The position numbers and the translations under genes are program-made. DNA of 64,000 nt from Raillietiella orientalis. Lineage: Eukaryota. Positions 11,623-53,746 of the stretch are shown here, one piece after another. Location: assembly GCA_036172245.1 (NCBI GenBank), contig JAYWIR010000035.1:1550001-1614000 (forward strand), read 5' to 3'. Numbering within the stretch: the stretch's first letter is position 1; each line of letters opens with the position of its first letter. The notes under the pieces were generated by a model, which did no database searches, was not told the origin of the DNA, and saw only the letters and a list, made by a program, of their open reading frames with translations.

Positions 11623-12465
11623 TGGCACCCGGTCAGGCGGGAGCGTTTATTTATGAAATAAACATCCATGTCTGTGGCAGGACATTTCATCCTGACACGT
11701 TACTTATAACTACGAGGGGGAACCTGCCGGGAACTGGCATGCAGGCCGGCGGGGTTCGCCTCGGCAGCACAGCGGAAGAGGAGACAAAAAGAAAAACATA
11801 GAACAAAAAAACATACAGTCAAAAATGGGGGATTCGGGAAGAGAGCACTGTGTGCTAGAGAGTGTTCTCTGCATCCTTGTAAGGATTCCCGCAAGTTCTT
11901 GTTTCAATATTGCCAGACGGGGCCATCCTTATGAAGAAGACAGCAAGATAGATCCATCGTCCTGATCGGCATCCCTATCGTCCTGGCCTCCTCTGGCATT
12001 GCTCGACGCAGCCACGATCCCGCCGCGTGGGCAGCAAAGTGCTGCTAAGGATGCGGCCGGTATGAGGGCATCTTGCAGGAAGAGGCTCTTTAAAACGCCT
12101 TTGGCGTTGCCAACGGGGGTTCCTAGGGTCACAGCAAAGCGTCCACGAAGGGGTCGGAGGGCAACACAGTCCATTTGGAGGTGAGGGAGAGATTCCCGCT
12201 CCTTGCACCTTGCACAGTTTGGGTCCACACACACCTATGTCCAATGATGCCGGCGGGCATTGCACGGAAGGTCTCAGTGCAGCAGCATCAATGCCGAATG
12301 CTGCCACTTCAAGGGGAGGGTGCGGGTATTCATGAGCGCCGGGGCCACTGCAGATCTTCCTCCGCAAGACCCAGTAGCACGCCCCAGCGCAAAAGTCCAT
12401 GAGGTCGAGTACTCGGGGTCGCAGCGTCGGTGAGCTGGACCCAGTGCTGGGTGAGCTGGCCGCAG
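11623..12465 (-). mobile_element. 5'-truncated L1/Tx1-like LINE (copy L) in Brachyury intron 1
   Basis: zf-RVT VDPNCARCKERESLPHLQMDC...AALCC, 3'UTR, terminal motif at 11626-11651; 15-bp TSD TGCAAAGTGAG(T/C)GGT at 11608-11622 and 12466-12480. Confidence 0.85.
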
Positions 12466-15400
12466 TGCAAAGTGAGCGGTAAAGGCAGAAGGGTGGCAGA
12501 GTAGATGCCAGGAAGAGGACGGTCGCGAAACGTTTCTCTCGAGTCGGCGACGCCCATCCTTGCTGGCAAGCGCGTTTTCGTGGCTTTCGCCACGAGCTCG
12601 AGAATCTAGAGGGTTGCCCGGTCACTACCGTTCCATTTCCCATGACTTCCAGTCTTGGGGTATGGAATTCGTTCCTCTCCCTCCCCCCCCCCCCCCCCCT
12701 CTTCCTTCCTCTTCGTTTTGTTGCATGTCAGTGCGCTTGAAGGATGTGGCCGACAGATCGAAGCTTCGAATAGAGTAACGGATTTTCATCAGTGAACAAA
12801 AATTTGCTGTTCGAATGCAGAGGCGGGATCAAAGCGCACGATGAAGCGAAGAAGGATGCCCATCCCATCCCGGATGTTCGGAAGGCACTCGTGGGAAAGC
12901 CTGAAGGAGAGCAGCACAGACACAGCTGCTGCATTTCCCACGATAAAGTCTATTCCTCGAAGTTTTGAAGATTCGAATGCAACGGGAAGATTCCCACAGG
13001 GCATCGCCGGAGGAGTCACGAAGACGGTAGCTGCGGGGTCTCCTTGACCTCTCGCAGCCACAGAACACCCTTCCGCGGGCTCTCCCGTTTCAGGTGCAGC
13101 CTTCCGGCTGTTGGCGAATGAGCTGCGCCTAGAGTTGAAGAATTCCTGGTTCACTAGAAATGGACGGATTCGGGCCGGCGCGCCCAAGAAGCTGTCGTCT
13201 GGGAGGAAAGGAAGCAACAGCAAACGTCTCTGAGCTCGATGCTCTTCGGTCGCCGGGAAGGATACGTGGGGTGTCATTTTGAAGGAACATCCATCATCGC
13301 AGCACCACCGGAAGTCGCTGCGTTTTGAAGCATCGGGTTGCTCTGAAAAGGGAAGGGAACGCGCTGCGTCTGCAGCCGTGTTCGAAAAGTGTCCAAATGC
13401 ACCTTTCGATCGCAAACACCGGGGCGCACCGAGAGGAAATCCCGACACGGTTTGAACCAGGCTTGCATGCTCAGGCTACGTATGCGCAGGTGTTGCTCGA
13501 ATTTCCCAGAAACATCGATTTCGTGCAAGGAGGAAAGCGAGGGCGTTCTCTTCCTCGAAGTTCTGTGGGTCTTGAGATTCGGACTCTCGAGGCGCGCGAC
13601 TCCAAGGAAATCCTCCAAGGAATCTCGTGCCTCGACTGAAGAATCGATGGCCAGTCCGGACCGACGATTCCAGAGATTCTTTCACGAACCAAGGCGGGAG
13701 GGGGAACACGGCGAAGTGTTCGGGCCACACGACTGCAGCATCAAACCAACGAATCCTCCAGTAACACCCTTCGGAGGATCAGTGCACGACCCGGGGTCAA
13801 GGACGTTTTCAGGGGTTGAAAAAAATTGAGAGCACAAAGTAGAAGATTCCCTCGAACCGAAACACAGCATCCGGATGTGCGAAGTCCTTTAGTGGAAGAC
13901 GTGGCGAGAACCTGATGAGGCCTTGGCGGAAGCTGGAGAGTCCGAGTTGCCCGTATCTCATCAGGAAGCCACAATCTCTCCACATCCGAGCCGTTCATTC
14001 CCATGATTGAGGGGGGGGAGAGTGCGCGGCTGCTGCATCCTCAGCATCCCTGAGCGAGGCACGCGCGAGTCGGGAATTTCCCGCGACCTCCTTCTCCCCC
14101 TCCTCCTCCCCAGAGGAACTTTTTCTCCAGAGTGCCCAGACGGGTCTCTTGGTGAAGTGGCATCCTATAAAGGTGAGATGCAGATCCACGGGCTCATGCC
14201 AGAAGAGATGGTGGACGTTCTGGAAAAGAGTGGATTCCTGGGTGGGAGTTGTTGTGTAGCCACTCCCGACGAATTTGGCGTCGAGATGCGACCCATTTAT
14301 GACCCTGATGTCTGCTGACTGAGCTGCTTCAAGGAGGTGAACAGAAGGAGCGCTGCAAGGGCATCTAGAGAGATGAGGGATCCTGGAATCGAACTTCTGC
14401 TTCATAGGTTGAAGACATCAGGATAATTTGCATAGCCTCGTGGTGTGTCGCGTGTGATCAGGGAAACCCTGTGAGAAGAAGGCTGCGCTCGCCCCAAAGA
14501 TGGAGAAGCACTGGACATTCAAGACTAGGACGGGGTCCTTTAGATGTGGAGTCCCGTCATTGAAGGGATTATTGGATGAAGCCGGAGATTGGCGGGAACG
14601 CCGCACTCACAGACAGCGGAACGACCTGGGAGTGGACCAGCGTTCTGAAGTGTTGTGTCAGTGGCTGGAGCGACTCCAGCTAGTCCTAAGGTTGTGGATG
14701 GGGAAGCAGAGGTTGTGGTTCAGGAGAGTTGGGAGAATGCTGAGCCGTACAGTCACGGAGATTTCGATTCCTGCTGGAACGACAGCAGCGAACGTCATGG
14801 CATCCGAAGGCAGTAGGCTCGATCTCTAGCCTCAAAACAAAAACGTGGTTTGCTCAGGATTTGCACACTAGCATGGCCGCGGCGATCGGGGGGATGTGTT
14901 TCTGGACGGTGTACAGGTACGTGTACACCGTTACACTTTCTTTATCGAGTGGGACGAGATGCCGAAAACCGGGGCAATTCGAAGGCAATCTTCAGGGTGA
15001 CCGAAGGGTTAGAACGTGCGCCTCGAAGCAAGATCGGACCTTCTCCTGCTGCGGGAGGGTGGGTCGCGGAGACTCGCTTCCTCGAAGTGGCCGTCGAAGG
15101 GAAGCATCGTGACAGCTCGCGCTAGCACAGGGGAGTGTGCCCTGAGATCAACAGAACGGAGGTGACGAGAGTGTACAGTGACAGGAGGAGCGTTCGGGAA
15201 GGGGACGGATGTCCTCATAAGGCGCACACGCTGGAACGGTGCTGGTGATGGCGGAGTGGGTGATCTTTGGAAACGATGAGATTCCGGTAGGCATGGGGAG
15301 GAAAACGTTCAGGGTCAGATCCCGCTGCCGATGCTCATGAAGGCAGCTGTAGACTTCCGCGTCTCTAGAGGGCAGCATGCGAGGCCGGAAAGTCCAGCTT

Positions 15401-18400: not shown

Positions 18401-19115
18401 AGCAGGAATTCGAGGTTGAGTGATGGTTTATTATCCTCTGGAGTGCTGGAGGAGAGAGACTTGATGCGACAGTGGATCGAGAGAGGGGTGGAGTCTGGGT
18501 GAATCCAATCTCAGGAAGAGGAGATTTGCGTGCAGCAGCTTGATCCCGAAATTCCCTTGCTCATTCGCGAGAATTTCACTCAGCACCTGGACACGGCTTG
18601 ATTTGCCTCCCCCTTGAAATCCACACCGCTACCCTGGATGGATTCTCACATTCACACACAGAGACTGCGTGGCAATGAGCTGAAGATCCAAAGACCACAT
18701 CAGGTGCTCCGCCTGATGAGCTGCTTTCGAGCCTATCCTAAGATCATCCGCACTCGAAGCTGCTTTCTTATAGTACGTGATCGCAATGTGAAGGGAAGCG
18801 TGAGAGCATCGTTTGAAAAGAACGGACGCATCTTGCCGCTTGCACGACCAAAAGATCCAAAAACGCGCGAAACGGTCGCCAAAGGGACGGACGAATGAGT
18901 TCCTCTGGCATCTGCTTCGAAAAGGCCGGAGATGCTCGCGCCTGAAGCGATCCGGGTGATACACCACACTCGAAACAGCTGTGTCTTCATGAATCGCATG
19001 GTTTTCAAAGATCGCGTGCGGCTCCCTTTCGTTTCGCCATTCCCACTACTTGCACCCCCTTCCGCTGTTTGAATCTCGAGCGATTGCAAGAAGTAATTTC
19101 TCTTCCTAACTCCAG

Positions 19116-19211
19116 GAGAATGTTTCCGGTGATCAGGATCTCAGTCAAGGGTCTGGATTCGTCGATCATGTACTCGGTGGTCTTGGAGGTCGTTCAGATA
19201 GATCAGCACCG
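19116..19211 (+). CDS. Bra: Brachyury-family T-box, exon 2
   Basis: Acceptor TCCAG|; RMFPVIRISVKGLDSSIMYSVVLEVVQIDQHR; donor GTGAG; phases match exons 1 and 3. Confidence 0.92.
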
Positions 19212-19274
19212 GTGAGCAAGATCGGACAGCAGCAGAGAACTGTCCTCACCTGCAACTGTCCTTTCTCTTTCCAG

Positions 19275-19443
19275 CTGGAAGTTCATCAACGGGGAGTGGG
19301 TGATAGGAGGAAAAGCAGAACTGCCGCCTGCTTTCACCACATACGTCCACCCGGAAGCTCCCAATTTCGGATCTCATTGGATGAAAGACTTTGTGCGTTT
19401 TGACAAAATAAAGCTGACCAACAAGCCCGGGATCAAAGGACAG
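19275..19443 (+). CDS. Bra: Brachyury-family T-box, exon 3
   Basis: WKFINGEWVIGGKAE...YVHPEAPNFGSHWMKDFVRFDKIKLTNKPGIKGQ; AG/GT boundaries. Confidence 0.95.
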
Positions 19444-19629
19444 GTGCAATCCGCTTCCAATCCGACTCTCCAGACCTCCTTCTTCCCCGACTATCGCGGC
19501 TTCGTTTCCCAGCTTTGCTTTTTCCATTTCCAGTTTTTCAAAGAATTTTTTCGGTGGACGCATGCGCCCCCCTCTCCTCCCCTCCTCTCTCCCCCTCCCC
19601 AACTAACTTGCTCTGCTACTGCGTTTCAG

Positions 19630-19764
19630 ATCACGCTCAACTCTCTGCACAAATACGAACCAAGAGTGCACGTTTTCCGCATCGGTGCCGAGTCCGAGTG
19701 CGTCAAAACGTGCGCGCTCCCTGCCACGCAGTTTATCGCCGTGACAGCGTACCAAAACGAAGAA
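19630..19764 (+). CDS. Bra: Brachyury-family T-box, exon 4
   Basis: TTTCAG|ITLNSLHKYEPRVH...TQFIAVTAYQNEE|GTAAGT. LNSLHKYEPR is typical of the Brachyury subfamily. Confidence 0.95.
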
Positions 19765-31619: not shown

Positions 31620-33717
31620 TTCCCCAGTCCGACTCGCGGTGGCGTAAATTTATTGGAATAAAACCATTCACTCGACATTTACACACACAACAAAACACAC
31701 TGATGCGGCCCACGCGGGTACAGCACTACACCGTCCTGGCCGCACAATTCACTACCCGGAGGTAGTGCAGGAAAGTCCAGGATGGGACTCTCCCATATGC
31801 TCGGATGTATATTTGTTTTTTCAGGAGTCCACGTAGAACGTCCGGGGCACTGAACACTTGTCCACGGGAAAGTTTCGCTCTTCTGATGAGGATACTCCTC
31901 ATGAAGGAGGCCACGATCACTCGCACGTGGGGTTGTAGAGGGGTACGCCGTTTTCGCCTTCAAAGAGCCCTCCTAGGATCTCCAGCGTCGGCGTATCCTC
32001 CTTCTGCACCTCTCGCTTTACTACTCTCCAGTTCCGGACGAGGGTGCGACAGGTGTAGATGTGCAGGTCATCTTCGATGGACCCGCATCCTGGGCACTGG
32101 TCGTCGTCGGGGTTCCCGGTCCAGTGTTGGAGCCTTGTGCCACACAGGATGCCTCCGTAGTAAAACATCAGGAAGCAATCCTCAACTTCCGGTGGCAGCG
32201 AGGATCTCCATAGGACCGCCCCGATCGCCTTTGAGTCGACGGCGGGGTTGTCAAATTTCGACTTCATTTTTCGCATTGCTTCCGATGGTGATGTCTCCTT
32301 GGAACTGAGAGAGTTGTTGTTCAGGAAGTTCACCCTGGACCACTGCGTGCCTTGATCCTGCCAAAGCTCCCGGGTCCTGTGAGTTATCCTCCTCTCCAGT
32401 TGTTTTTTATATGCGAGGACTCGTCGTGCGTGTATACCCACCCTGTTCGACAGTCGCTCGCATGCGTCCATGGTCACTTTCCGGGTCTTCTGGATCCACA
32501 TTCCCGTTTCCCAAGGGACGCTGAGAAACAGCGGGATCACCTTGGTGAGTTTTTTGCTCCATAGCTGCTTTCTCCTTGGCACAATTCGTAATTTGAAGGT
32601 CCACATCAGACTCTGGATTCGCAGCGACGTTGGGTCCACTTTGTCCCAGTAGCCCGCGGTGAGCTCCATGGCGGACATGAGGCCATCGGTTCCTTGCACC
32701 AATCTTGTGAAGGCACGGTGGAACTCAAACGGCCACTCGTCCCATGCGCTGACTATTCGGACCAAATGTTTTAGGTCCTGGAGCTTCACGGTAGTGGCTA
32801 CATCGCGCAAGCCGGTGCCTCCTTCCGTCTGCGGGAGATGCAGGTATTGCAGCTTTGTCTTTGGTCTTTTGCCGTTCCAGACAAGTTTCCTCTGGATGTT
32901 GGCCAGGTCTTTTGTCGTCCTTGGGGGGAACGCTAGAAATGACGCGGCGATGAGAAACTTCGGCGCCATAACCCCGTTCCAGAGGTTACCCTTATCCTTC
33001 TGCGAAAAACATCTCCCGATGTATTGGCTGGACTCCTCGTGCAGCTTGACCAGGATGGTCGACCATTGCTGCAACTCCAGGGCAGGTGTTTCGTCGCCTA
33101 TGTGTACCCCGAAGTGACGTTGTCCGCGATCTGAAAGCCATGAACGTGAAGGACGGTGACGTCCGGTATTCCCACGGCGAGCAGATGGGACTTGTTGGAG
33201 TTCACCTTGAGTCCGAGAACGCATTCCATGGCCTGAATGAAGTTCAGGAATGCCTCCTGGTCCCACTCGTCAGACATGAAGAAAAGCAGGTCGTCAGCGT
33301 AGGCCAGGTGCGTGATGTTGCCTTCTTCTTTCCCCCAGGTTGATACTCTTGAGCCGGCTCTCGCGGTAGACGAAGGCGCTTATCGCCTCCATGTACAGAA
33401 CGAAGAGCATGGGGTTCAGGGCATCTCCCTATCGGACTCCTCTTTTCATGTGGATGTTCTGCGACGTTAGCCCGTTCACGGTGATCGAGAAATTGGCCTC
33501 TTCCCAAGTGTGTGCCACATGTTGCACGAATCTCCCCTGGAAACCCTGCTTTTCGAGGATCTTCAGCAGCGTGGTCCACCGAGTCGAAGGCCTTCTCGAT
33601 ATCGGTGAAGACCAGCACCAGGTCATTGCTCAGGATACGATTGCATCCCAGGAGGGTCTGGGCGCACCTCAAGTTATCCCACATGCGTCTGCCTGGCACG
33701 GCACACGTCTGCGATGC
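31620..33717 (-). mobile_element. Decayed L1/Tx1-like LINE ORF2, distinct family (copy E)
   Basis: QTCAVPGR, DIEKAFDSVDH, RGVR*GD, AYADDL, EGGTGL, QCPGCGSIEDDLH; frameshifted; AATAAA near 31650. Confidence 0.88.
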
Positions 33718-35004
33718 CACCCGGATACGCCGGGACCTTTATTCAAACTCTTTCTGATGTCATAACAATACGTGATACAAGGCCCCACTAACGGCCAACA
33801 TTTCGCCGGACCTGCCGAGACGCCGGGACGCAGACCAGCGTGACTCCTTGGCAGTGGAAGGGGAAGGGGGAAAAAACAAAAAGAAAAATAAAACCAATAA
33901 AATAAAAAAAAGAGTTTGGAGGGCCGGGAAGGGATCACTGACCACTGGTAGGAGGGTCCATGCTTTGCAGTATTCCCTCGAAGTCCTTCTTTAGTCCACC
34001 CAGCTGCGGCCATTCGGTAGATCTCTGCAGGAAGCGAGCAGCATACGGGATGACGTCCCTTTCGTTGACATCTTCATCTTCGGCTTCACTCCAGGCCGCC
34101 ACAATCCCACGGATGCAGCAAAGTGCTGCCAGGGTTGCGGCTGGCTGCAGGGCTTCCCGCACGAAGAGAAGGCGGTAAACGTCTCTGGGGTTGCCGCCAA
34201 CCGGAATCCCAAGGGTCGTTCCGAAAAGTTCTCACAGGGTCCGGGAGGCAGGACAGTCAACTATCAGGTGGGGGAAGGACTCCCGCTCTCAGCACCTGGC
34301 ATACTCAGGGTTTACTCTTCCCCGCGTCCAGTGGAAGCAGCGCGCGTTGCAGGGTAGACCCCTATGCAACAACAGGAGCGCCGACTCTTGCAACTTGAGG
34401 GGGAGGATATTGGAACCATTCAGTACCGGGGGTCACTTCAGGTCATCCGTCGGGATGCCGAGCATCTCGCCCATCGCAAAAGTCACACTCGGGGTCGTGG
34501 CATCTGACAGCTCTCACATGATCCAACCGCTCATCTTCTCTCTGCCCGCGATCCGACGGTAGACTTGCCACTTCGGTGTGCGGCCGCTGACGAGGGCCCT
34601 CCATAGGAAGGGCAGAGCCGTAGCGAAAGGGGTGGTCTCCTCCCATGTGCTCTTTGCGGGACACTCCACAATGGTCCTCAGGGTGCAGCGGGCGTAGGTC
34701 CCGAATCTCACGCAGTTCCAGCTGTCACTTCAGGAGAATGGCATTTAACTTCGCCCACGTTCTAACAGATTCCTCCAGCCATGCGGAGTTGGCGGGGCTG
34801 CATACCATCCAGCCATTCTCCTTGGCAATTGTAGCCATGCGTCAAAGGAGGAGGCCGCATCCTCTGATCTTCCGGCCGGGGCACAGAAGTTGAGACGCGA
34901 GTCCTTGAGTCCTGGAGACGGGCCGGAACGCACCAAGGGGCGCTCCACAACTTCGCTGCGATGGCAATGGTGCGCCATTGCAGCTGGATTTCCAAGCGCT
35001 CTCC
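33718..35004 (-). mobile_element. 5'-truncated L1/Tx1-like LINE (copy A)
   Basis: QLQW..LWSAPWCVPARL, ESFPHLIVDC, AALCCIRGIVAAW, 3'UTR and terminal motif at 33718-33743. Confidence 0.88.
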
Positions 35005-35620: not shown

Positions 35621-37626
35621 TTTTCACCCGGATTTCGCCGGGTCGTTCATTTAAAAATAAACTTTAACAGATATGTCAGTTGCTGCAGCAATGCTCCAGC
35701 CACGCACGAAGAACCACGGAGCCTGCCGGGTCACCGGTTCGCAGACCGATACGGTCCACCAAGGCAGCAGGGGGAAGGGGGGAAAACAAAAAACTAAACA
35801 AAAAGAACAAAAAGAGTGGGAGGGTACGGGAAGGGATATCACTGTTGCTGCTGGGGCCGTAGCATCCTTCGCAGGATGCCGGCAAGCTCTTTCTGCATTC
35901 CTGGATCCAGGTGGGGTCACCGCGACGCCCTCCTCAAAAATTCAAAGGCGTGCTGGATGGCACCCTTATCGCGAGGTCCTCCCGTAGCCTTACTCCAAGC
36001 GGCGACGGTCCCGCGTAGGCAGCACAGGGCTGCTATCGAGGCCGCAGGCCGAAGGGCGTCGGCAACGAAGAGGGCTTTCAATGCGTCCCTGGGGTTGCCG
36101 CAGGGGATTCCGATGGCCGCGGCAAAGCGGAACCAAAGGGGCCGAAGGGCAACACAATCCACTAGTAGGTGGGGGAGGGACTCCCGTTCCCCACGCCTAA
36201 CACAATTGGGGTTCACCGTTCCCCAGGTCCAGTGGTGTCGGCGGGCGTTGCAGGGGAGTCCCCAGTGCTGCAACAGTAGAGCCGACTCCTGCCATTTTAA
36301 GGGGAGGGTGGAAGTGTTCATGAGCACCGGGGGCCACTTCAGATGTTCAATGGGAACATCGAGCAGCGCGCCCCAGCGCAGAAGTCCATTGGGAGGCGTA
36401 CTCGGGGTTGCAGCGTCTGTTAGCTGGCCCGTCTTCCACTCTCCTATCTTCTTCTCCTTCCCGGAGATAGTTACTCTAACCTCTCACTTCGCCGCAACAT
36501 CGCTGTCCTGATCTTCCATTAGGGAGGCCAGCGCAGCAGCGAGGGAGGTTCTTCCTGACCACGCTCGCTTCTTCGGATCCTCCAGGATCTCTCGGAGCGT
36601 GCAACTTCTGTAGCACCCAAACAGGAACCGTCGTTCCTGTTGGGCGTGTTGCATGCCGCACTGTGCCCACGTGCGAACGGTTTCCTGCAACCAGGCACTA
36701 CCGTTCGCGGGGCGACAGGTGATCCATCCGTGGTTTCCCCGAACCAAGGCAGCTACCCTCCGCAGCTGGAGCTCACATCGGTTGATGCGGGAGCGATGGA
36801 GTGAAAGAAAGGACGTGAGTCCCATCTTCCCAATGGCTTTCTTGACGAGGAGACGTGCAGGGACGCACCAGCAGGTGCACCACAACTCCGGCACAAGTGC
36901 CAACATCCGAAACTGGAGCTGTCGCTCCAGCCGCTCCAACGTCAGGATGCCTAGACCGCCATCCCGACGCGGAGCGCACAAGTCCTTCAAGCTGACTCGG
37001 GCCCTCCCGTTGCCCCAAAGGGCGATACAGAGGAGGCCCTTCGTCCGCTTTTTTATTCTCTCTATGGGGGGGGGCAAACAAAAAGCAGGGAACGAAGGAG
37101 AGGAACCGCGAACGTGTTCCAAACCGCGGCCCGTTCCGGCAGGAAAAACCTGCCGCCTCGGAAGGGGCCGATCGCCGTCTCTACTTTTTGGAGGCAGCCG
37201 GACCACGCTTCCGCAGGGGAATAGTCCCCCAACGGCACACCAAGGTACTTGAAGTACCTCACCGTGGGGATCCCCAAACGGACCCATTCCTGCTGCCCTG
37301 CCCACGCCACACCAACTGGCATTACGGACGACTTCGCCCTGTTCACCGTAAGTCCGGTTCCCCGACTCAGCAGGTCGAAGAACTCCTCGACCGCCGAAGC
37401 CGGGGTGGACATAGGGAGCAGCAGCAGAAGGTCGTCCACGTACGCTGAAACCGCCGGCGTACCGGCGCAGTCGTGCGGCAGGTGCTTTAGAGGATCCCTG
37501 TACGCTCTCAGTACCAACTCGAAGTAGGTACTGAAGAGCAAGGGACTCAGGCTGTCTCCTTGACGTATCCCACGCCGCACCGGCACGCCGTGCACGGTCT
37601 GCCCGCTGAAAGAAACGTTGATGAGC
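35621..37626 (-). mobile_element. 5'-truncated L1/Tx1-like LINE (copy B) nested antisense in H
   Basis: GIRQGDSLSPLLF, AYVDDL, YLGVPL, zf-RVT; perfect 15-bp TSD GCGCAAAGCATTCGA at 35606-35620 and 37627-37641; A4 tail. Confidence 0.92.
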
Positions 37627-37900: not shown

Positions 37901-38128
37901 TTTTCACCCGGATATGCTGGGACATTTATTGTTAAAATTTTATAATAAAGTCTTAAGTTTTTTCAGGTAGAACACGTGGTTTTGCCTGTCTTGGAACACT
38001 TGCTTTTACCGGCTACCAGACCGGTGAGATTCTCTTCGCTGGTGAAGGGGGCGGGAGAACCACACACAAAAAAAAAAAAAACACGAGAGGGCAATGTTTT
38101 ATGGGGAGGGGGCAGGAGGGTTCCCAAG
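37901..38128 (-). mobile_element. 3'UTR-only LINE fragment (copy D)
   Basis: Terminal motif at 37905-37930 with a short A tail; UTR similar to the adjacent copy C. Confidence 0.75.
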
Positions 38129-39650
38129 TTTTTCACCCGGGTGAGCCGGAGCTTTTATTATTAAAATTTTTTACATCAAAAAAAAATTCCATAATAAAGT
38201 CTTTTTTTGTTAACACTATTTTTCTTTTTCGGTCAGCACAAAAGTTTTGACTGTTTTGGGGCACTTGTCCTTACCGACCCTTAGGCCGATAAGGTCCTCC
38301 ACACTGGCGCAGGGTCAGGAAAAACCAAAAAAAAAAAGAAAAAGAAAAACGCCTGGGGGGGGGAGCAATGTTTTTGGGGAGGGGAGGAAAGGGAGGGGAT
38401 CACGGTACGCCGTGAGGAGGCCTCTGCATCCGGTTTCGCATGCGAACAAGTGCCGACAAATGTTTTTTAAGTCGGCGCCAACGGGAAGCCTTCTCCAAAG
38501 AGATGGCTGCCCAGTGGATGGCATTCCGACTGGTGCGGCACCTCCTTGACGCGGTCCACTTGTCCAGGATTCCGCGTAAGCAACAGAGCACTACTACACA
38601 CCCGGAGGCTGGCATGGCGTCCCGCACCAGGAGGCGTCTAAAAATGTTCTTGGGGTCGCCCACCGGAATGTTCAGGATCGACGAGAGTCGATCCCACATC
38701 TGACGGAGGGCAACACACCCGATGATTAAGTGGGGAAAGGTCTCCCTTTCCCCGCACTCTGCGCAATTGGCATCCACACTCCCCGGTGTCCAGTGAGACA
38801 GGCGTGCTCTGCTTAAAAGTGGAGCAGAAGTGGCCCAATGGAGCAGAAGCAACGCCATCTCCTGCCACTGCAGGGGAAGGGTGCCGTTGTCCCAAGACGC
38901 TGGGGCCACTTCACCTCCTCCGGAGGCATGTCGAGCAACTCGCCCCCGCGTACAAGTCCATTCGGCGGGACACTCAGGGTAGTAGCGTCCGCTAGTTCCC
39001 GGGACGTCCACGCCTTCATCAGTTTTTTCCTGCCCTTGATGAAGCAGGACACTTCATAAGAAGCCTCCTCTTGGCTGTCCCTGGCTTCTATGAGGGAGGG
39101 CAGCACGGGGGCAAGGGGGGTGAATGAAGCCCACAAAAGCTTTTGTGGGCTGAAAAGAATTTCCCACAGGGGCTGGCCAGCGTTCCGGCCTCGACGAAGG
39201 CAGAAGTCCACCTCGCTGGAGCCGTTGATTTTTGCCCACGCGGAAACAAAACAGACTCCTGTAGCCAGGTAGTCAAGTCCGCGGGGATGCAGGAGATCCA
39301 CGGATTGTCCCTCACCAGGGCAACCAGATCCCGTAGCTGAAACCCACAATGGTTCAGACTACAGTCGTTGGCTGCTAGGATTGAGGTCAATCCGTAGCAG
39401 CCGGTTGCCCTGTGGGCGAGGATTCGTGCGGGCGCACACCATGGTGCTGTCCAGCTCTTTGCCACAAGGGCAAGTTTTCTGAATTGGAGCTGTCGCTCCA
39501 TGCGCTCCAACGTCAGGAGACCAAGTCCACCGTCCCTGCGTGGAGCTCACAAGTCTTTAAGCCGGACGCGGGACCTCTGGTTGCCCCAGAGGGCTTTCCT
39601 TATGAGGCTCCTTGTCCGTGTTCTAATTTGGGAAGGGACGGGGCACACAG
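38129..39650 (-). mobile_element. 5'-truncated L1/Tx1-like LINE (copy C) nested antisense in H
   Basis: LERMERQLQFR, WTAPWCAPAR, NCAECGERETFPHLI; terminal motif at 38134-38159; the C+D unit is bounded by GTGC(G/C)CAGGT at 37891-37900 and 39653-39662. Confidence 0.85.
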
Positions 39651-41286
39651 GGGTGCCCAGGTACACCAGCCGTGTCGGCATATGCGCACGATCTTCTGCT
39701 GCTGCTTCCATGTCCACCCCGGCGTCGGCGATCGAAAATTTTTTGTGCTGCTACGCCGCGGGACAGGACTGGAGGTGAACAGGGCGAAGTCGTCCGTGGT
39801 AGCAGTTGGTTCGACATGAGCAGGGCAGCAGGACTGGTTCCGCTTGAAGATCCCCATAATGCGGTATTTTAATTACCTCGGTGTGCCGTTGGGGGACTAC
39901 TCTCCGGCGGAGGCGTGGTCCAGCTGTCACCAGAAGGCTGAGAAGGCGATCGGCTCATTCCTGGATGGTAAGTTTTTCTTGCCGGAACGGGCCACGGTGT
40001 GGAACACGTTCGTGGCCCCCCTTTTTCTCTCCTTGCTTTTTGTTTGCTCCCCACCCCGTGGTGTAAAGAGGCGGACCAAGGGCCTCCTGAGGATTGTCCT
40101 TTGGGGCAGAGGGAGGCCCCGAGTCCACCTGAAGGACTTGTGCTCTCCGCGTCGTGACGGAAGCCTCAGCCTCCTGACTCTGGAGCAACTCGAGCTGCAG
40201 CCTCAGTTGAGAACGCTTGCCCTTGTGACGACGTGTGGAGCACCAGCTGGTGCGAGTCTGCACGACACCTGGTCCAGTGAGCCAGAGACTGCGATTGATT
40301 GTCTACCTTCCTAGAGCGTCGCAAACACCAGTACCTGTTCCACTGCGGACTGGATTTTTGACGAGTGGCCAAGCTGACCAGGACGAACACCTGGATCTCC
40401 AGCCAGCCCGCAAACGGCAATGCCTGGCTGCAGGAAAGCTTTCCCAATTGGACCCTGAACGAAGAAGCGAGCTCGGAGTTGCGCCAGTGACTGCTGCACT
40501 CCTTTTAAGATTGCCGCTCGCTGCAGGACGTCACCGTGCAGCCTGCCTCTTGTGCGTGGGCTGAGGACCTCCCCAGTCGCGACTCTTCCCTACTTCAGGG
40601 AGCAACGGGGACAGCCGGACAAATAGGAGGTCCGATTTGTGATAGGTCGTCGGACGAAGAAATTAGGTGGTTGTACCACAAGTCAGCCAAGTGACGCTGC
40701 GACTCCAAGTGCCCCACCGAAAGGACTGTTGCGCTGGACGAGCTGCTGATCATCCCGTTGGAAGTACTCGGGTGGCCCCCAGTGCTGAAGAATACCCGGG
40801 CCCTCCCTTAAAGTGGCAGGAGTCGATGTTTCTGGTGTTCCACTGGGAACTTCCCAGCAATGTCTGCTGATCTCACTGGGCGAGGGGGGCAGTGGACACG
40901 AACTGCGTCAGGTGCGGGGTACGGGAATCCCTCCCGCACCTACTTATTGACTGTGTTGCCCTCCGGCCCCTTTGGGAACGTTTCGGTACGACCTTAGGGA
41001 TCCTGGGAGGCTGCCCTCCCAGAGACGTTTTTCGGCTCCTCTTCGTGCGGGACGCCCTGAAGCCAGCCGCAGCCGTAGCAGCACGTTGCTGCATCCGTGG
41101 TATTGTGGCGGCCTGGAGTGAAGCCGTTTTTTCCCCCTTCCCCTTCCACTGCCGAGAAGAGTCACACTGGTCTGCTTCCCGGCGTCCCGGCAGGTCCTGG
41201 GAAATGTTGGCCGTTAGTGGGACCTTGTACCACGTAATGTATTGACGATTGAAAAGTTTTAATAAACGTCCCGGCGTACCCGGGTG

Positions 41287-44200
41287 GCATCGCCGTATAC
41301 ATGGACAAACCCGAACTCACCGATGACCTCGTGGAGATCAACGGCAGGCTCCTTCCCGCGGCCACGACGTTATACTTGTCAGGTCTGCATCCGATGACGG
41401 AAGGGGACACACTAGCCCGCCTCAACGAGACTGGCTACCACGAAGACACCTTCGGCGGGGAAGCCATCCTCAAGATTCGGATGACGAAAGGAGCACAAAT
41501 TCCGACCCTCGTCCGAATCGACGAACATTCGCACCACGTACGCGTGGCATACCGGGAGCAGCCCGACTTTTTCCGCACCTGCATGATCTTCGGACACAGG
41601 ACGGCGGCCTGCCCCGACAGAAGGGGGTGCCCGCGCGTCACACCGAGAAACTGGAGTTTTTCGAGAGACTGCGCGACCGCTGGCTCAGCAACTCCGGCCC
41701 CGATGTGGCTCACCTCGTAGCCAGGGACTTCAACGTCCACGCGCTATCGGAGGAGTCTCACCGTCGCCGGGAGAAACGGCTGGTGAACGAGGTGTGCGCG
41801 TCCGTGCACGCCTCGAATTTGCTGGCCGACGATCCCGGGATGCGTGCTTTGCCGGACCATGTGTTCCTCGACGATCACCTGCATTGTCGGGTGGGTCGAA
41901 GAGGTCCCGTGCCGTCCGAGCTTTCCGACCACTACAGGCTGGATTTTGAGCTACTCCCGCCTGGCAAGGGCTCTCCGACGCACGTCTGGAGGTTGCCGGC
42001 CGACTGGTTGAGAAATCCGGTGGCTGCGGAGCACCTCCGCCAGCATCTCCGGACCTTGGCCGTTCGAGAGCTCGTGGACTGGGACGATCTGAAAAGATCG
42101 GTCCGCGAGTTCTGCAGCCGATTCCCCTTGCGCCTGCTTCCCCGTGGCTTCGGGGAAGGCGTGGCCAACAGCAGAGAGTTTCTGCAGGCTCGCCAATTCT
42201 CCCGATGCCCGGACGTCCGGTACCTTGCGGAGTAAAAGGCCAAGGCCGAGCGCCAGGTCTGGCAGTCAGGAGCGGCTTGTCTGCTCGACGACCAGGGCCT
42301 AGAGTGCTCGGGCGCGGCCGAAGTTCGCCGCCTCCTAAAGCGCTACTACTCCTCGTTGTATGCTAGGGAGCCGACGGAACGCAGTCTCTCGGAGCTGCTT
42401 CTGCCGGCGGATTCCCCGGCGGTCGACGAGGAGGAACGCTCCACTCTTGACTTGCCCTTCACGGCGGAAGAAGTGTCTTCCGCCATAGCGGGCCTCAAGA
42501 AGCGCAAGGCTCCAGGTGAGGATGGTCTGCCTGCGGAGTTCTTCCAGTGCTTCGCGGCGGAACTCATCCCCCTGGTGCTGAGGCTTTCTGCGCTGATGCG
42601 AGAGACGGGCAATGTCCCGGCCTCGTTTCGCTCAGCAAGGGTGCGTCTCTTGCCGAAAGGCGGAGACATGCGCCATTTAAGCAACTGGCGTCCCATCACC
42701 TTGGTGAATGCGGACGTCAAGTTGTTCTCCAGGCTCTGGGTCGCGCGCCTAGGCAGGATCGCTGGATCCGTGGTAAGTCCGGAGCAGTCTTACGCTGTTC
42801 CCGGGCGGTCCATGGAGGCGAACCTGTTCTTCGCGCGCAAGTGGCTCGAGCTGCAACGTTGCGTGGCGCACGACAGCCAGGCAACCGCATCTGCGGCTGC
42901 CCAGGCTAGGCGTCGCTGCATTCGGCCTGGGGAAGCGCCGGGTGCCTTGGCGGTCGCGGTCGATCTCCGCAAGGCGTTCGACTGCGTAAATCAGGATCTC
43001 CTGCTGGAGCTTCTGGAACGCCTCGGTCTCCCGGTGCACCTCGTGGCCTATTTGCGCGCTTGCTGGCGCCACGCGCTCATTTCCACCTCTTTTAGCGGCT
43101 GCCAAGAGTACGGCGTGCCGGTGCGGCGGGGCATCAGGCAGGGCGACAGCTTAAGCCCGTTGCTCTTCAGCATCTTCTTTGAGTTGGTGCTGAGGGAGTA
43201 CAGGCTGACGCTGGCCAACCTGCCGAGCTTTTGTCCAGGAACGCCGTCCGTGGCGGCCTATGCTGACGACCTGCTTCTTCTTTTACCCATGACCACCCCG
43301 GCGTCCAGTCTCGAGGATTTCTTCGAGCTGATTCGCCGGGGAGCGGGCATGAGCGTAAACAGGAGCAAGAGCGTGGTCGTACCTATTGGTGCGGCGTGGG
43401 AGGGGCAGTCCGACTGGATCCGCCTGGGGATCCCGACCGCTTCGTCCACCCAATATCTGGGCGTTCCGCTGGGGAACATCAGCCCAGTGGAAGTGTGGTC
43501 GGACTGCCTTCGGAAGGCTACGAGTGCGCTGAGCCCGTTCCAGCATGGCAGGTTCCTCCTGTAGGAGCGGGCCGCGATATGAAACACCTTCGTGGCCCCC
43601 CTCTTGCGCCCCCTGCTTTTTGTTTGCCCGCCTCCCTACTCGGCGAAGCTCCAGGCGCACAGCCTGTTGAGGAACGCTCTGTGGGGTCCTGCGAGGTCCA
43701 GGATCCGCCTGAAAGACTTGGCGGCTCCGCGTCGGGATGCTGGCTTAGGCATCCTGACGCTGAAGAGAATCGAGCTGCAGGTGCAGCTTCGGATGTTGGC
43801 CCTGTGCGCTAACCTTTGGTCCACTCCGTGGTGCGCTCCTGCGCGCTTGCTCCTGCGGCGCTGCACCGGCAGCGACGGACTTCTGTCGCTGCGTCCGCAT
43901 ACGGAGCGCCCCACGACAAGTTTCGGTTTCCCTTTCAAACCCCTCTACCGGCTCCTGGCAGCCCAGGAATGGATCTCCTGCCGCCCAACGAACTTTCAAG
44001 CCTGGCGGCAGGAACCGTTGCATGGCTGGGCAAAGCACCAGGATGTTTCCCTCCTGGAACTCCGTTGCGTTCACCTCTCCCCGTACTGCACGGTGGATGA
44101 GGTCTGCAGCAGCCAGGAGAAGTGGACCCGCCTGGCCCTCACCCCCCTCGCCGACGCACTGTCAGCCCTCAGGGCAAGAGATGACAGCTGCGAACCGGCG

Positions 44201-45701
44201 AGATGGGAGGTCGCCTGCACCATTGCAGGAACAACACGACCTATTAGCGGCTGGAGGACTTGCGAGCTGGCAGACGCCGCCACGCCTCGCCACATCTCGA
44301 AGGGACTCCTTCGGTGGAGTGAATACTTGAGTGTGCCCCCCGAAGAACTTGTGGTCCCTCCCTCCTGTTTGAACACTTCTGTGTTCCCCCTTTCGTGGAA
44401 GCAGGACGTCATCATGCTGGTGCATTGGGGTTTTCACTCCAACCAGCGGACGAACCGTGTTTCCGGGGGAGTTGTCTCCCCAAACTGTAAGCGGTGCGGG
44501 GAAGTGGAAACGCTCCCGCACCTGCTCCTGGACTGCGGTGCCCTTCTAGGACTTTGGCGGAGGCTGGTCTCAGCTCTCCTGCACCAGGGGACACCGCGAG
44601 GGACTTGATGCGCCGCTTCTTCACGCCAGGCGGCCTGTCTTTGGGTGCTGTCGTTGCAACCGTGTGTTGCACCCGCGCCATCGACAAGGCCCACCGAGAG
44701 TTGGAGAAGCTGGCCATCGTTCGTCAGCCCACCGGATTAGCCAGCGCAAGCATGTCGTCGGCTGCCGAGTGGGCCCATCTGCCACAGGACGTAAGGAGAG
44801 AGATCGCCGGCATCCATCGCCGGTTTTGAAAGGAAGGAACGGACTCACCAAAGACCCCTGTCCCCTGCCCACCACATTTTTATTTTTATTTTTTATAGTA
44901 GTGTATTTGTGATCCCCTCCCTCCCGTTCCGGACTTTCGCCATACCGACCTGCGTGTCGGGGATCCCACCCCCTTCGTATCTTGTTTTCCCCTTTGTCCA
45001 GGAACTCTGTTCCCGGATAGTTTCTAATAAACGCCCCGGCGCACCCGGGTGGTAAACAGAAGGGGGTGCAGGCACTGCGACAAACCCGGGCATGCCAACT
45101 CCGAGCGCGAGCGCCCCAAGCGATGCTACTTTTGCAAAGCTGGGGGATACAGAGAAGAAGGACTGCTAGCCTTCCAAGAAGGAAAGCGGCGGAAGGACAA
45201 CTCTGCCATCTCATTGGAAGAGATGTCCGCTCCTCCCCCAACGGCGAAGAGCCCCGCAAAGAGCGGGAGGCCGCCGGCGTAGGAAAGGAAAAATGTGGGT
45301 CGGGAGGAGCCTCCTGCTAAGGCAACCTCCGCCGCCACACCTCCCGCGAAGGAAACTGGGCAGGAGGCAGCGATAAGCGAAATGCAGGCAAAGATCGACG
45401 ATCTGCGCTCTACAATTAGAGAGATCGCTAATGAGAAGCAGAAAGGCTAGGCATTCCAGCAATCCAAAGACCTGCTGGAACACCTGAGGCAAGAAGCCAT
45501 TCCGTCTCAGATGGTCTTGCACCTGGAAGATCAGGTGTACGTCAGCCTCACTCCCCTCGTCCTTCCGGAAGAGGAACGCAAGCAGGGGGAGGGAAAACCA
45601 CCGGCAGAAAACCTAAACAGCGCCGAGATGATCGAAGCCCTGGAAGCAGAGGAGAACGCGGCCAGCTGCCACACCTCGGAAGAGGATACTCCTGATGCTG
45701 T
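41287..45701 (+). mobile_element. L1/Tx1-type ORF1 (gag-like, zinc knuckles; copy G), split into 41287-41630 and 45070-45701
   Basis: IPTLVRI...RVAYREQP.FRTCMIFGHRTAACPDRRGC | RHCDKPGH...RCYFCKAGG; three CCHC-like knuckles become contiguous once copy F is removed. Confidence 0.8.
41631..45055 (+). mobile_element. Near-complete ORF2 of L1/Tx1-like LINE (copy F): APE endonuclease, RT, zf-RVT; pseudogenised
   Basis: EN motifs DFN and LSDH; RT KAPGEDGLPAEFF, NWRPITLVNAD, DLRKAFD, GIRQGDSLSP, AYADDL; CKRCGEVETLPHLL; in-frame stops (e.g. 43562); perfect 14-bp TSD ACAGAAGGGGGTGC at 41617-41630 and 45056-45069. Confidence 0.93.
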
Positions 45702-45993
45702 CACCCGGTCACACCGGGGCGTTTATCATAAACTGACAACAGTTGCAGTATAAGGCCCCGCTGCGGCCAATAAAATAAGGGACCTGCCGGGTCGTCGGTG
45801 CTCAGACCGACTTGACTCTCCACGACAGCGGAGGGGGATGGGGAAAAAACAAAAAGAAAAGTTAAACAAAATTAAAAAAAAAGAATAGTTCTCTGGAGGG
45901 TCGGGAAGGGATCACTGTCCGCTTGGTGGAGGTTCCATCCTTTGTAGGATGCCGACGAGGTGCTTCTTCCTGTTTCCCAGGTGGGGCCATCGG
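45702..45993 (-). mobile_element. Short 5'-truncated LINE 3' end (copy J, related to A)
   Basis: WPHLGNRKKHLVGILQRMEPPPSGQ* matches copy A WPQLGGLKKDFEGILQSMDPPTSGQ*; UTR and terminal motif at 45702-45727. Confidence 0.82.
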
Positions 45994-46595
45994 TGTATAC
46001 GGCGAAACCCCCGACGAACGGAACGATGGCCTTGATCCACGTGAAGTCTATCTTGCAATGGATCGCCAAGTAGATGTCACGGATTGCGTTGTTGGTGAGT
46101 CGGCCCATGAGGAAACTGACGGAGGTCACTTCCAAGCCGAACCTTCTCAGGGGTCCTGAACCCTTTGTGATTTCTTTTCAGACGATAACGCCGTTCCCTG
46201 CGGACGACGCGGGCTTTGCGGTTGGGACGGATGCGGCCACTCTCCCGTACGACAGCGCTGTGGGTGCCTGACTGCTTTCGCAGCTGCCGAAACGTCGTCG
46301 CTGTTTCCGTGGATGGTCCAGCTTCCACCTCCATCCTGGACATCTTCTCCTTCCTCTTCCCAGAAGGGCCTCGGTGTTGGGTTGCTCCACTTGGAATTGA
46401 AGACTCCATCTTCCACCACACTGATCACTCACTCACTTTCACTGTTCGCTTGCCCACTTGGGGCACACAAAAATTGCCGCGGCAGCGGTATTTCACGCTG
46501 CCTTGGCGGGGTATTGGGTAAAGTTTTCAACTAGCAATAATCGCGCTTCGTTTCCAATCCTCGGCTACGATATTGCTCGTGCGCAAGGCTGTTTC
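45994..46595 (-). mobile_element. LINE 5' region and ORF1 N-terminal half (G')
   Basis: SYGRVAA...IKAIVPFVGGFAVY ends at the residues where copy G begins (GIAVY). The 5' boundary is approximate. Confidence 0.55.
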
Positions 46596-46617
46596 TTATT
46601 GTAACAGAAAAGGAGGT

Positions 46618-47112
46618 TTGTCACCCGGATTTGACGGGGCATTTCTTTGAAAATAAAAGTACATGGAAATGTTTCTGTGGTGAACCCCTTGGATCACCAC
46701 GTCACGGCAACTTTCAGTCACCGGTTGGGACACCGGCGAGGTCCGTTTCCGAAGCGAGTGGGGCGGGAAAAACACAAACAAAAAGAAACAAGTGGAACAA
46801 GGGTGAGGGAGGTGTTCTGGATGGAGGGAGGGCAGGGAAGGGATAACTCCTCGCTGGGAGACGTCATCTATATCCTCTTCAGAATATCTGCAAGTTGCGT
46901 CCTCACACTATCCAAGTGAGATCATCAGGATGTGATCTTTCAAAAAAAGACGTCCAATGGACAGCATCCCTGCCATTCTGGCCTATTCTGGATGCGTTCC
47001 AGGCCGCCACGATTCCGCGAATGCAGCAGAGAACTGCCAGGGCAGCGACCGGGGACACAGCGGCACGCATAAAGAGGGGCTTAAAAATTTCCTGGGGCTG
47101 CCTTCGGGGATG
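46618..47112 (-). mobile_element. Short 5'-truncated LINE (copy K)
   Basis: LAVLCCIRGIVAAW, UTR, terminal motif at 46622-46648; 9-bp TSD AAAGGAGGT at 46609-46617 and 47113-47121. Confidence 0.8.

Positions 47113-50413: not shown

Positions 50414-53746
<3,333 letters not shown>

Follow-up and report, generated by a model that had tools for sequence, protein, structure and literature searches.

A hairpin kept by compensating changes in the 3'UTRs of a LINE family of Raillietiella orientalis and its possible part in 3'-tail recognition

The nine sites analysed in this work are the 3'UTRs of nested copies of one diverged non-LTR (LINE) family, most of which are visibly 5'-truncated. They are located in a single stretch of DNA of 64 kb, which is referred to as the window. 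Each 3'UTR carries a 6-bp hairpin (hairpin 1), and the evidence supports this hairpin as a sense-strand cis-element that is selected for pairing. A 3'-tail hairpin that is kept by compensating mutations is a known kind of feature and not a new RNA class.

We consider hairpin 1, with a probability of roughly 0.55, to be one of the two parts of a module for 3'-tail recognition in a stringent LINE, whose reverse transcriptase (RT) is L1-ORF2p-like. The ORF2 protein that the element encodes would bind the loop on its CUG side as well as the conserved stem. A terminal hairpin would set the start of reverse transcription, so that the copies end at a defined nucleotide with no A-tail. This would be the stringent mode of LINE 3'-tail recognition. 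The position, conservation, and maintained pairing of the hairpin, the G-U strand bias, and the defined ends without a tail are what is observed; the protein binding and any role in retrotransposition are inferred.

Nine hairpin copies and the LINE family that carries them

All nine hairpin strings, each of 18 nt, were located exactly where the original prediction had placed them. The strings match those it had given when the minus strand is read for J, B, D, C, K, L, and A, and the plus strand for H and F.

33822..33839, minus strand: hairpin 1 of copy A, GCUGGU-CUGCGU-CCCGGC, four Watson-Crick pairs, one G-U pair, and one U/C mismatch
41166..41183, plus strand: hairpin 1 of copy H, a close relative of A; the weakest of the copies, with two mismatches
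45794..45811, minus strand: hairpin 1 of copy J, six Watson-Crick pairs, two of which differ on both sides from the commonest pair
35733..35750, minus strand: hairpin 1 of copy B
11733..11750, minus strand: hairpin 1 of copy L, one C/A mismatch
46720..46737, minus strand: hairpin 1 of copy K, loop GUCCCA instead of CUG
38008..38025, minus strand: hairpin 1 of copy D; the 5' truncation of this copy lies ~100 nt upstream of the hairpin
38273..38290, minus strand: hairpin 1 of copy C, stem extended by CCUU/AAGG
44944..44961, plus strand: hairpin 1 of copy F, the least certain homology, with divergent flanks

Columns 59-76 of the alignment A1, which was constructed using MAFFT without structure input, hold all nine hairpins. 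The helix of hairpin 1 is one of just two consensus helices retained by RNAalifold. The loop starts with CTG in seven of the nine copies (the exceptions are C and K), as had been predicted. Loop position 2 (U) is invariant and loop position 1 (C) is kept in 8/9 copies, a pattern of sequence conservation that suggests a base-specific contact at these positions.

The assignment to the 3'UTR was also correct, with the motif on the ORF2 sense strand and ORF2 upstream of it, because the ORFs directly upstream on the same strand contain RVT_1 matches and weak zf-RVT matches (copies B, C, and F) and because the ORF2 C-terminal segments upstream of L, A, B, and H are similar at the nucleotide level. 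The C-terminus of ORF2 exhibits a Cys-X2-Cys...His-X4-Cys motif with weak zf-RVT matches. Among solved structures, the RT matches L1 ORF2p with E values of 9e-36 to 8e-35 and R2 with 3e-17 or weaker. The RT thus appears closest to L1 ORF2p among solved structures, while its named relatives are annotated just as 'reverse transcriptase' and its relatives in the protein atlas are generic RT clusters alone. No Exo_endo_phos match at E<=0.05 was found for an AP-endonuclease in the ORFs upstream of the RT in the longest copy, which is possibly truncated. The same region gave no PDB match at E<=1, and the longest copy has at most ~940 nt upstream of the RT-aligned part.

Four copies directly abut another LINE fragment. 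One copy has an inverted 5' segment of the type that twin priming produces. Copy D is a 5'-truncated LINE and not a SINE, and no partner SINE with this tail was found in the 64 kb window, where the covariance model finds the nine LINE copies alone.

A covariance model built from A, J, B, L, and K recovers the held-out copies D (28.5 bits, E 5e-6) and C (20.2 bits, E 8e-4). Copy F scores 11.4 bits (E 0.17) against a model built without it, and its support as a homologue is weak. Beyond the nine sites, the best covariance model score in the 64 kb window is 17.8 bits, and no further motif site was identified. Kinship among the copies is uneven, with A and H 87.6% alike over 169 nt and C and D also a related pair. 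The sample of nine copies thus holds fewer independent lineages.

A weak extra model match at 13657-13707 on the minus strand (18.8 bits) was not counted; it has neither a clear hairpin nor the terminal motif. A purine/A-rich run on the opposite strand could be taken as a LINE A-tail, which would put the motif on the wrong strand or in a 5'UTR; this was ruled out by the ORF2 C-terminus, which lies upstream on the same strand, and by the 5'-truncated copy D, which retains its 3' end. Copies H and F lie on either side of one ORF, in the same orientation, and could be read as Penelope-like terminal repeats with hammerheads. This reading was dismissed since H is the end of the preceding copy and since Rfam gave no hammerhead match.

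Maintained pairing in hairpin 1 and the wider stems

The compensatory and G-U changes that the original prediction had described were borne out. Forty-nine of the 54 stem cells are paired, and four of the six pairs are altered on both sides (G-C/A-U at pair 1, C-G/U-A at pair 2, G-C/A-U at pair 5, and U-A/C-G at pair 6). These double-sided changes are spread over different copies (J, F, C, L, and A) as well as over four pairs. The percentage of paired cells is 90.7%, compared with 20-54% after a shift of the 3' arm by 1-3 columns. Among 500 column shuffles, seven match the covariation score and 18 match the percentage paired, and relatedness alone can exceed these controls. The arms have collected 27 substitutions with just five unpaired cells. 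The same 27 substitutions placed randomly leave 36.9 +/- 2.5 paired cells and reach 49 or more in none of 200,000 trials, in a test that presumes a star phylogeny; A and H are close relatives.

The flanks had been described as poorly conserved. This holds for the flanks of the hairpin, with a pairwise identity of 0.34-0.51 compared with 0.63-0.64 in the arms, but not for the 3' terminus, which far exceeds the hairpin. The identity of the arms is moderate and little above that of the C-rich tract (0.56). The pairing probability of hairpin 1 is at least 0.59 in five of the nine copies (A, J, K, D, and C) and at most 0.06 in the other four (H, B, L, and F), where alternative pairings prevail. The MFE z-scores of the 3' 126-175 nt are undistinctive (mean -1.2 in sense and -1.8 in antisense).

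The hairpin might have no function and be a GC-rich near-palindrome that was inherited from a common ancestor, with compensations too few to count. The small sample with its related pairs A/H and C/D, the shuffle controls that relatedness can exceed, the four contexts in which the hairpin is not predicted, and the failure of the held-out model to recover F are all in keeping with this explanation. However, it has to accommodate 27 arm substitutions with so few unpaired cells, double-sided changes at four pairs in different copies, and flanks that have diverged to 0.34-0.51 identity, and we regard it as decidedly unlikely.

The ratio of G-U to A-C cells on the ORF2 strand is 8:2, and this excess favours a sense-strand RNA. 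If the hairpin acted as DNA or as antisense RNA, 43 instead of 49 of the 54 cells would be paired, with the eight G-U pairs becoming mismatches. RNAalifold also prefers the sense strand of A1, with a consensus energy and covariation term of -15.55/-0.43 in sense compared with -14.11/+0.75 in antisense. The evidence on strand from the ten informative G-U and A-C cells is suggestive and not decisive. It bears on the explanation that the inverted repeat acts as double-stranded or cruciform DNA, where it would be bound by a dimeric protein of the host or of the element, or would serve as a signal in integration or second-strand synthesis. Such a DNA repeat would show compensating changes too, the arms are near the palindrome ACCGGT, and both the outer stem and the terminal hairpin again contain strings with CCGG. 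The G-U excess and the preference of RNAalifold for sense oppose this explanation, which is very improbable.

Hairpin 1 is enclosed by a CTGYC/GGCAG outer stem in A, H, J, B, and L, and a further stem follows in A, H, J, and B, as predicted; two pairs of this further stem are altered on both sides in B. The description as a multi-stem cis-element is valid for the outer and third stems of one subfamily, but the outer stem is weak in K and missing in C, D, and F. In the group of A, H, J, B, L, and K, 93% of the outer-stem cells and 83% of the third-stem cells pair, and RNAalifold predicts both stems there. Across all nine copies the outer stem is 69% paired.

33782..33854, minus strand: three-helix module of copy A, with outer stem 33850-33854/33812-33816, hairpin 1, and third stem 33807-33811/33782-33786
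41149-41223, plus strand: three-helix module of copy H, layout as in A
45755-45828, minus strand: three-helix module of copy J, layout as in A
35693-35767, minus strand: three-helix module of copy B, layout as in A
11763-11767/11724-11728, minus strand: outer stem alone in copy L

The multi-stem layout of A, H, J, and B is also what an unrecognised self-cleaving ribozyme in the 3'UTR could look like, and other retroelements carry ribozymes (HDV-like ribozymes at LINE 5' ends and hammerheads in Penelope-like elements). The statement of the original prediction that the motif does not match the hammerhead, HDV, or twister consensus agrees with the Rfam search. Rfam 15 gave no match at gathering score in the whole window, ribozyme families included, and none at E<=5 on either strand of 33600-46900 and 11500-12000, although the Rfam models could miss HDV-like folds whose sequence is little conserved. 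The hairpin motif itself was not found in Rfam or in the literature search. Copies C, D, and F lack the extra stems, and cleavage in sense would sever the coding part from the 3' end that is needed for copying. The sequence is unbroken across the motif in all nine copies, and no copy starts or ends there; the RNA that was copied is thus not cut at the motif, since even the 5'-truncated copy D runs through it. A ribozyme is scarcely credible here.

The 3' terminus and the rest of the 3'UTR

A stronger feature than hairpin 1, absent from the original prediction, is located at the 3' terminus. It consists of AAUAAA and a terminal hairpin with an invariant CCGGGUG, followed by ~6 nt and no poly(A).

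33712..33743, minus strand: 3' terminus of copy A, with AAUAAA, 3 nt, a CCCGG-N5-CCGGG hairpin, UG, and a ~6 nt tail
41261-41292, plus strand: 3' terminus of copy H
45696-45727, minus strand: 3' terminus of copy J
35619-35651, minus strand: 3' terminus of copy B
11620-11651, minus strand: 3' terminus of copy L
46616-46647, minus strand: 3' terminus of copy K
37899-37930, minus strand: 3' terminus of copy D
38128-38159, minus strand: 3' terminus of copy C
45026-45057, plus strand: 3' terminus of copy F
33849..33940, minus strand: start of the 3'UTR of copy A, with a conserved box, a U-rich tract, and a C-rich tract up to the outer stem
33918-33940, minus strand: conserved box that contains the ORF2 stop codon of copy A

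The terminal CCGGGUG is present in 9/9 copies with an identity of 1.00. The similarity among the copies falls from 0.49 to 0.18 at ~6 nt past CCGGGUG, which marks a defined 3' end. None of the nine copies has a poly(A) tail, and the longest A-run is 5. In sense order, the 3'UTR consists of the ORF2 stop, a C-rich box, a U-rich tract, a C-rich tract, hairpin 1 (6 bp with a 6-nt loop that is mostly CUGNNN), a variable stretch, AAUAAA, and the terminal hairpin. The U-rich tract is one long run ~40 nt upstream of hairpin 1, and the distance from hairpin 1 to the 3' end of the element is 83-132 nt.

AAUAAA is exact in 6/9 copies (A, H, L, D, C, and F) and is replaced by GAUAAA in J. The last nucleotide of the element lies ~27 nt downstream of AAUAAA, which is within the usual cleavage distance of 10-30 nt. 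Signals for mRNA processing are thus clearly present in the 3'UTR. These signals fit a role of hairpin 1 in the life of the transcript (stability, export, translation control, or 3'-end formation) instead of in RT loading. The hairpin would act together with AAUAAA and the terminal hairpin, or the U-rich tract, whose long run is so near, would interplay with a poly(A) tail. Triple-helix ENE structures that clamp poly(A) are reported in transposon RNAs (PMC12501189), and they resemble the present case in being structured, U-containing parts of retroelement 3'UTRs upstream of a poly(A) site. However, an ENE requires a stem with U-rich internal-loop strands on either side, which hairpin 1 lacks; its flanks are not U-rich on both sides but have a single U-run upstream, and no Rfam family matches it. 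The hairpin is also 83-132 nt upstream of the cleavage region, and the genomic copies have no A-tail, so a tail is not what gets copied. Taken together, a role in the life of the transcript appears unlikely.

Recognition of the 3' tail and comparison with known systems

Three functions had been offered for the motif. ORF2p loading fits best, the ribozyme is without support (no Rfam match and continuous copies), and 3' processing fits AAUAAA and the terminal hairpin better than hairpin 1. The identity of 1.00 in CCGGGUG is far above that of the arms of hairpin 1, and the terminal hairpin alone might therefore be the recognition element.

Conserved 3'-tail stem-loops are how most LINEs distinguish their own RNA from cellular RNA. 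According to PMC4176376, the retrotransposition of stringent LINEs depends on a cognate 3' stem-loop, with ORF2p binding the stem generally and the loop specifically. The 3' tail here resembles those of eel UnaL2 and zebrafish ZfL2-1 and ZfL2-2 (L2 clade), R2, and SART1 in that its sense RNA carries a stem-loop that is short and conserved. In those tails, the stem is likewise kept by pairing and the loop bases by sequence. The defined 3' end and the lack of a long A-tail are also shared with stringent LINEs. In contrast to UnaL2 and ZfL2, the sequence here is different, the RT is nearest to L1 ORF2p, a second hairpin is present at the very 3' end, and neither terminal short repeats nor a partner SINE is seen in the 64 kb window. 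The eel and zebrafish L2 stem-loops are also nearer to the 3' end than hairpin 1.

L1-clade LINEs are relaxed and poly(A)-dependent. The family described here is similar to them in its RT, which resembles human ORF2p, in its Cys/His C-terminal motif, and in its inverted 5' segment, whereas the absence of poly(A) and the invariant structured terminus set it apart. For human L1 and Alu, a position-specific 3'UTR stem-loop has been suggested as a cue for RT recognition (PMC5135761), where the consensus is a bulged stem of 8-10 bp that adjoins the poly(A) tail. The stem here is of 6 bp and unbulged, is not followed by poly(A), and exhibits compensating changes between diverged subfamilies.

A more specific form of the two-part module can be put forward tentatively. 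The family would be an L1-related LINE that recognises its RNA not by poly(A) but by a stringent 3' module, which consists of the internal covarying CUG-loop hairpin and the invariant terminal hairpin that closely follows AAUAAA. The cleavage site itself would be where reverse transcription starts, and an A-tail would never be copied. The direct head-to-tail junctions (C/D, A/next, and H/next) would arise by template jumping, where the enzyme leaves one template and continues on a different one at its structured 3' end.

Relatives of the element were searched for in other data. The ORF2 C-terminal alignment gave 154 pattern matches in metagenomes, and none was confirmed as a relative. The DNA pattern of the terminal hairpin matched at least 116 metagenome stretches, and the 25 of these that were inspected look unrelated. 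The motif model scores at most 13.2 bits on 116/116 of the stretches listed, so they are regarded as chance matches. One DNA sequencing run (X1) contains 0.12 of the sampled words, and no RNA run is listed as containing them. The contigs of X1 include 630 aligning pieces, 448 of which are less than 90% alike, which indicates that the element family or its relatives are abundant in X1. Among the X1 variants listed, none is inside the hairpins.

The compensating changes that occur naturally among the copies provide mutants with which the reading of the stem and the loop by the protein can be tested, and the hairpin module could be of use in retrotransposon-based insertion tools as a compact handle on the template. 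An RT that looks L1-like but leaves no poly(A) bears on the question of relaxed L1-type versus stringent recognition, which is raised in PMC4176376. On the path that has been proposed from stringent to relaxed LINEs, this lineage would occupy a natural intermediate stage or mark a reversal, if the L1-related stringent reading is true.

Position and covariation of the 3'UTR hairpin

Nine copies (A, B, C, D, F, H, J, K, and L) of one LINE family in the window carry a hairpin with a 6-bp stem and a 6-nt loop in their 3'UTRs (hairpin 1). All nine strings listed in the original prediction were found at their positions. The opposite strand beside each hairpin is purine- and A-rich and could pass for a LINE tail, so the orientation was checked. 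Copies B, C, and F have the ORF of the ORF2 C-terminus directly 5' of the hairpin on the same strand, and a coding segment of roughly 400-470 nt is alike upstream of the hairpin in L, A, B, and H. The stop codon of this ORF in copy C, TGA (38400-38402), belongs to a box conserved across seven copies. Copy D is 5'-truncated about 100 nt upstream of the hairpin and keeps all downstream sequence, as should be the case for a LINE copy. The predicted placement in the sense-strand 3'UTR therefore stands, given the upstream ORF2 C-terminus and copy D.

Compared with its close relative A (33849-33990, -), copy H (41110-41150, +) is missing about 130 nt internally: the ORF2 end, the box with the stop codon, and the greater part of the U-rich tract. 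Its C-rich tract, hairpin module, and terminus are retained. Another small hairpin (AUCCU-4 nt-AGGAU), which may reflect coding-sequence conservation instead of structure, lies about 20 nt upstream of the stop-codon box in five copies.

Table. AUCCU/AGGAU hairpins.
35864-35877, -, copy B
45937-45950, -, copy J
11873-11886, -, copy L
46870-46887, -, copy K, 7 bp
33960-33973, -, copy A, one mismatch

All hairpin statistics are based on the nine copies only. The nine hairpins fall in columns 59-76 of A1, a structure-blind MAFFT alignment of the 3' tails, and RNAalifold over its 230 columns predicted two helices only, hairpin 1 and a terminal hairpin. The stem is paired in 49 of 54 cells (41 Watson-Crick, 8 G-U), with the five unpaired cells in A, H (two), L, and F. 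Four of the six pairs are changed on both sides, in seven cells, and these changes are spread over different subfamilies. Among 500 column shuffles, the covariation score was matched in 7, the percentage paired in 18, and the number of pairs changed on both sides in 36. Sliding the 3' arm by 1-3 columns lowered pairing to 20-54%. When the 27 departures from the consensus arms were redistributed at random, each copy keeping its own number, 36.9 +/- 2.5 paired cells were expected and 49 was reached in 0 of 200,000 trials, a significance that is overstated since copies are assumed to be independent; without H, 45 of 48 cells were paired against 32.9 +/- 2.3 (0 of 200,000 trials). The 5' half of the loop is also conserved (C in 8/9, U in 9/9, G in 7/9).

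With only A, J, B, L, and K used for training, a held-out model recovered H (62.0 bits), D (28.5 bits, E 5e-6), and C (20.2 bits, E 8e-4), and gave F only 11.4 bits (E 0.17, rank 14 of 27 listed). The best score of the full model in the rest of the window was 17.8 bits. The held-out model also weakly matched 13657-13707 (-; 18.8 bits, E 0.002), which has a C-rich lead-in but neither a clear hairpin nor a terminal CCGGGTG and is possibly a decayed tenth tail or a chance match. Hairpin 1 is a real, selected structure of this L1-like family, and the original observation of it is confirmed.

RNA fold, wider stems, and 3' terminus

The ORF2 strand has 8 G-U against 2 A-C cells, and these counts swap in duplex DNA or when the complementary strand is read. 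RNAalifold on A1 gave -15.55 kcal/mol with a favourable covariation term of -0.43 for the sense strand, against -14.11 kcal/mol and +0.75 for the antisense; two other alignments (A4 and A5) showed the same direction. A sense RNA structure is thus favoured, on ten informative cells only. Thermodynamics gives hairpin 1 no extra support. The MFE z-scores of the last 126-175 nt were -3.4 to +1.0 (mean -1.2) in sense, against an antisense mean of -1.8. The in-context pairing probability is 0.59-0.99 in A, J, K, D, and C and <=0.06 in H, B, L, and F, where nearby CCGG- and GGACC-type strings offer competing pairings.

Two further stems, an outer and a third, were assessed in the subset A, H, J, B, L, and K. 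There, 93.3% of outer-stem cells pair, and K has U-A in place of G-C at one pair; the third stem is 83.3% paired, with two pairs changed on both sides in B. RNAalifold predicted all three helices in the sense strand of this subset. The outer stem is only 68.9% paired across all nine copies, and neither stem has a convincing counterpart in C, D, and F. The originally proposed multi-stem layout is therefore a subfamily trait, with hairpin 1 as the shared core.

A second feature, absent from the original prediction and much better conserved than hairpin 1, ends each of the nine copies. Its parts, in order, are AAUAAA (exact in 6/9 copies, GAUAAA in J), 3-4 nt, the terminal hairpin CCCGG-N5/6-CCGGG, UG, and some 6 further nt. 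In the window, CCGGGTG is found 21 times, where 6.3 +/- 2.8 would be expected. Exactly nine of these are in the terminus context, each 83-101 nt (132 in C) downstream of a hairpin 1. Pairwise identity averages 1.00 in CCGGGUG, 0.78-0.79 in the AAUAAA region and 5' arm, 0.49 in the next 6 nt, and 0.18 beyond, so the element ends about 6 nt past CCGGGUG. No poly(A) tail was found in any of the nine copies. The terminal helix has no pair changed on both sides and varies in its 5' arm only.

Rfam 15 yielded only U4 in the window at the gathering score and no match at the nine sites at E<=5 (searched in 33600-46900 and 11500-12000). The suggestion of an unrecognised ribozyme is unsupported: a sense-strand self-cleaving ribozyme, besides lacking an Rfam match, is difficult to square with copies whose sequence runs uninterrupted through the motif. 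The U-rich strands that an ENE-type poly(A) clamp requires on both sides of a stem are absent. Papers listed in literature searches included general studies of LINE tails and none of this motif; the comparison with described motifs covered Rfam 15 and these listings.

The LINE family and its surroundings

The window is eukaryotic DNA in which blocks of about 31-45% G+C alternate with blocks of 54-65%. Diverged reverse-transcriptase (RT) fragments are nested on both strands in the G+C-rich block at 32-46 kb. Copy L (11620-12700, -) lies by itself in another G+C-rich block, at 2-19 kb, where RT hits are absent.

Table. RT-related and host features (the three zf-RVT matches score 15.6-17.3 bits; Pfam cut-off 27.5).
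42236-43561, +, RVT_1 match (among several), E 3e-23
35920-36483, -, ORF with weak zf-RVT match
38403-39053, -, ORF with weak zf-RVT match
43583-44605, +, ORF with weak zf-RVT match
46452-46590, -, full-length U4 snRNA gene, 85.8 bits (Rfam)
48751-50184, +, amidase gene, at least 5 exons, short introns
50417-50653, -, CCDC28-like exon
18946-19890, +, T-box domain exons, E 1e-26

Human L1 ORF2p chains match the best-preserved RT with E values of 9e-36 to 8e-35; for R2 proteins, E is 3e-17 at best. A large protein collection contained one close relative (64% identity); the other 41 matches were <=34% identical. A Cys-X2-Cys...His-X4-Cys motif is conserved at the ORF2 C-terminus of four copies. 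Metagenome scans with the ORF2 C-terminal alignment and a terminal-hairpin DNA pattern gave no added relatives among the matches listed.

Among the runs listed as sharing words with the window, there was one public DNA run and no RNA run. The 630 matching contig pieces of the DNA run, most <90% alike, show that the family or its relatives are abundant there; the run contained no linked variants for hairpin analysis. Summed contig depth was 90 over the bin with the 3' tail of copy A (33600-34043), the highest of 30 bins, against 19.5 and 5.8 beside it, and was also high (38) over the bin with the 3' tail of copy J (45588-46031). These peaks fit many 5'-truncated copies.

The 5' end of the U4 gene (46590) lies about 25 nt downstream of the 3' end of copy K (46616) in the same orientation (-). 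This single case in the window could represent insertion into an snRNA promoter region or snRNA-locus targeting.

Candidate recognition of the 3' tail by ORF2p

Several copies are joined directly to another LINE fragment. Head-to-tail joins without spacer are seen where the 3' end of copy C meets the 5'-truncated start of D (both within 37899-38346, -) and where the ends of A (33711-33743, -) and H (41261-41330, +) abut same-orientation RT-coding sequence of another copy. The D end abuts an inverted RT fragment. Template jumping and repeated target-site use are mechanisms described for R2. The head-to-tail joins suggest one of these, and a jump could have landed on another RNA at its structured 3' end. 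A 169-nt inverted duplication of 74.6% identity (37461-37629 and 37732-37900), with RVT_1 matches on opposite strands, lies in RT-coding sequence beside the D 3' end. Twin priming yields 5' inversions in L1 insertions, and the duplication looks like such an inversion.

According to PMC4176376, the ORF2p of stringent LINEs binds the cognate 3' stem-loop, with general recognition of the stem and specific recognition of the loop, and reverse transcription begins at a defined end. The compensated stem, the conserved 5' half of the loop, the fixed tail-less end after AAUAAA, and the direct joins of several copies fit that description (PMC4176376) and are the basis for a stringent-mode reading. By this analogy, we give a probability of roughly 0.55 that hairpin 1 belongs to a stringent-type recognition module with the terminal hairpin as start-site determinant. 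The cognate ORF2p would bind hairpin 1, its stem generally and its loop specifically, and the terminal hairpin would fix the start site of reverse transcription.

Hairpin 1 is probably a new example of the well-known recognition structures of LINE 3' tails. More unusual is that an L1-related element has an invariant terminus of AAUAAA plus hairpin and no poly(A).
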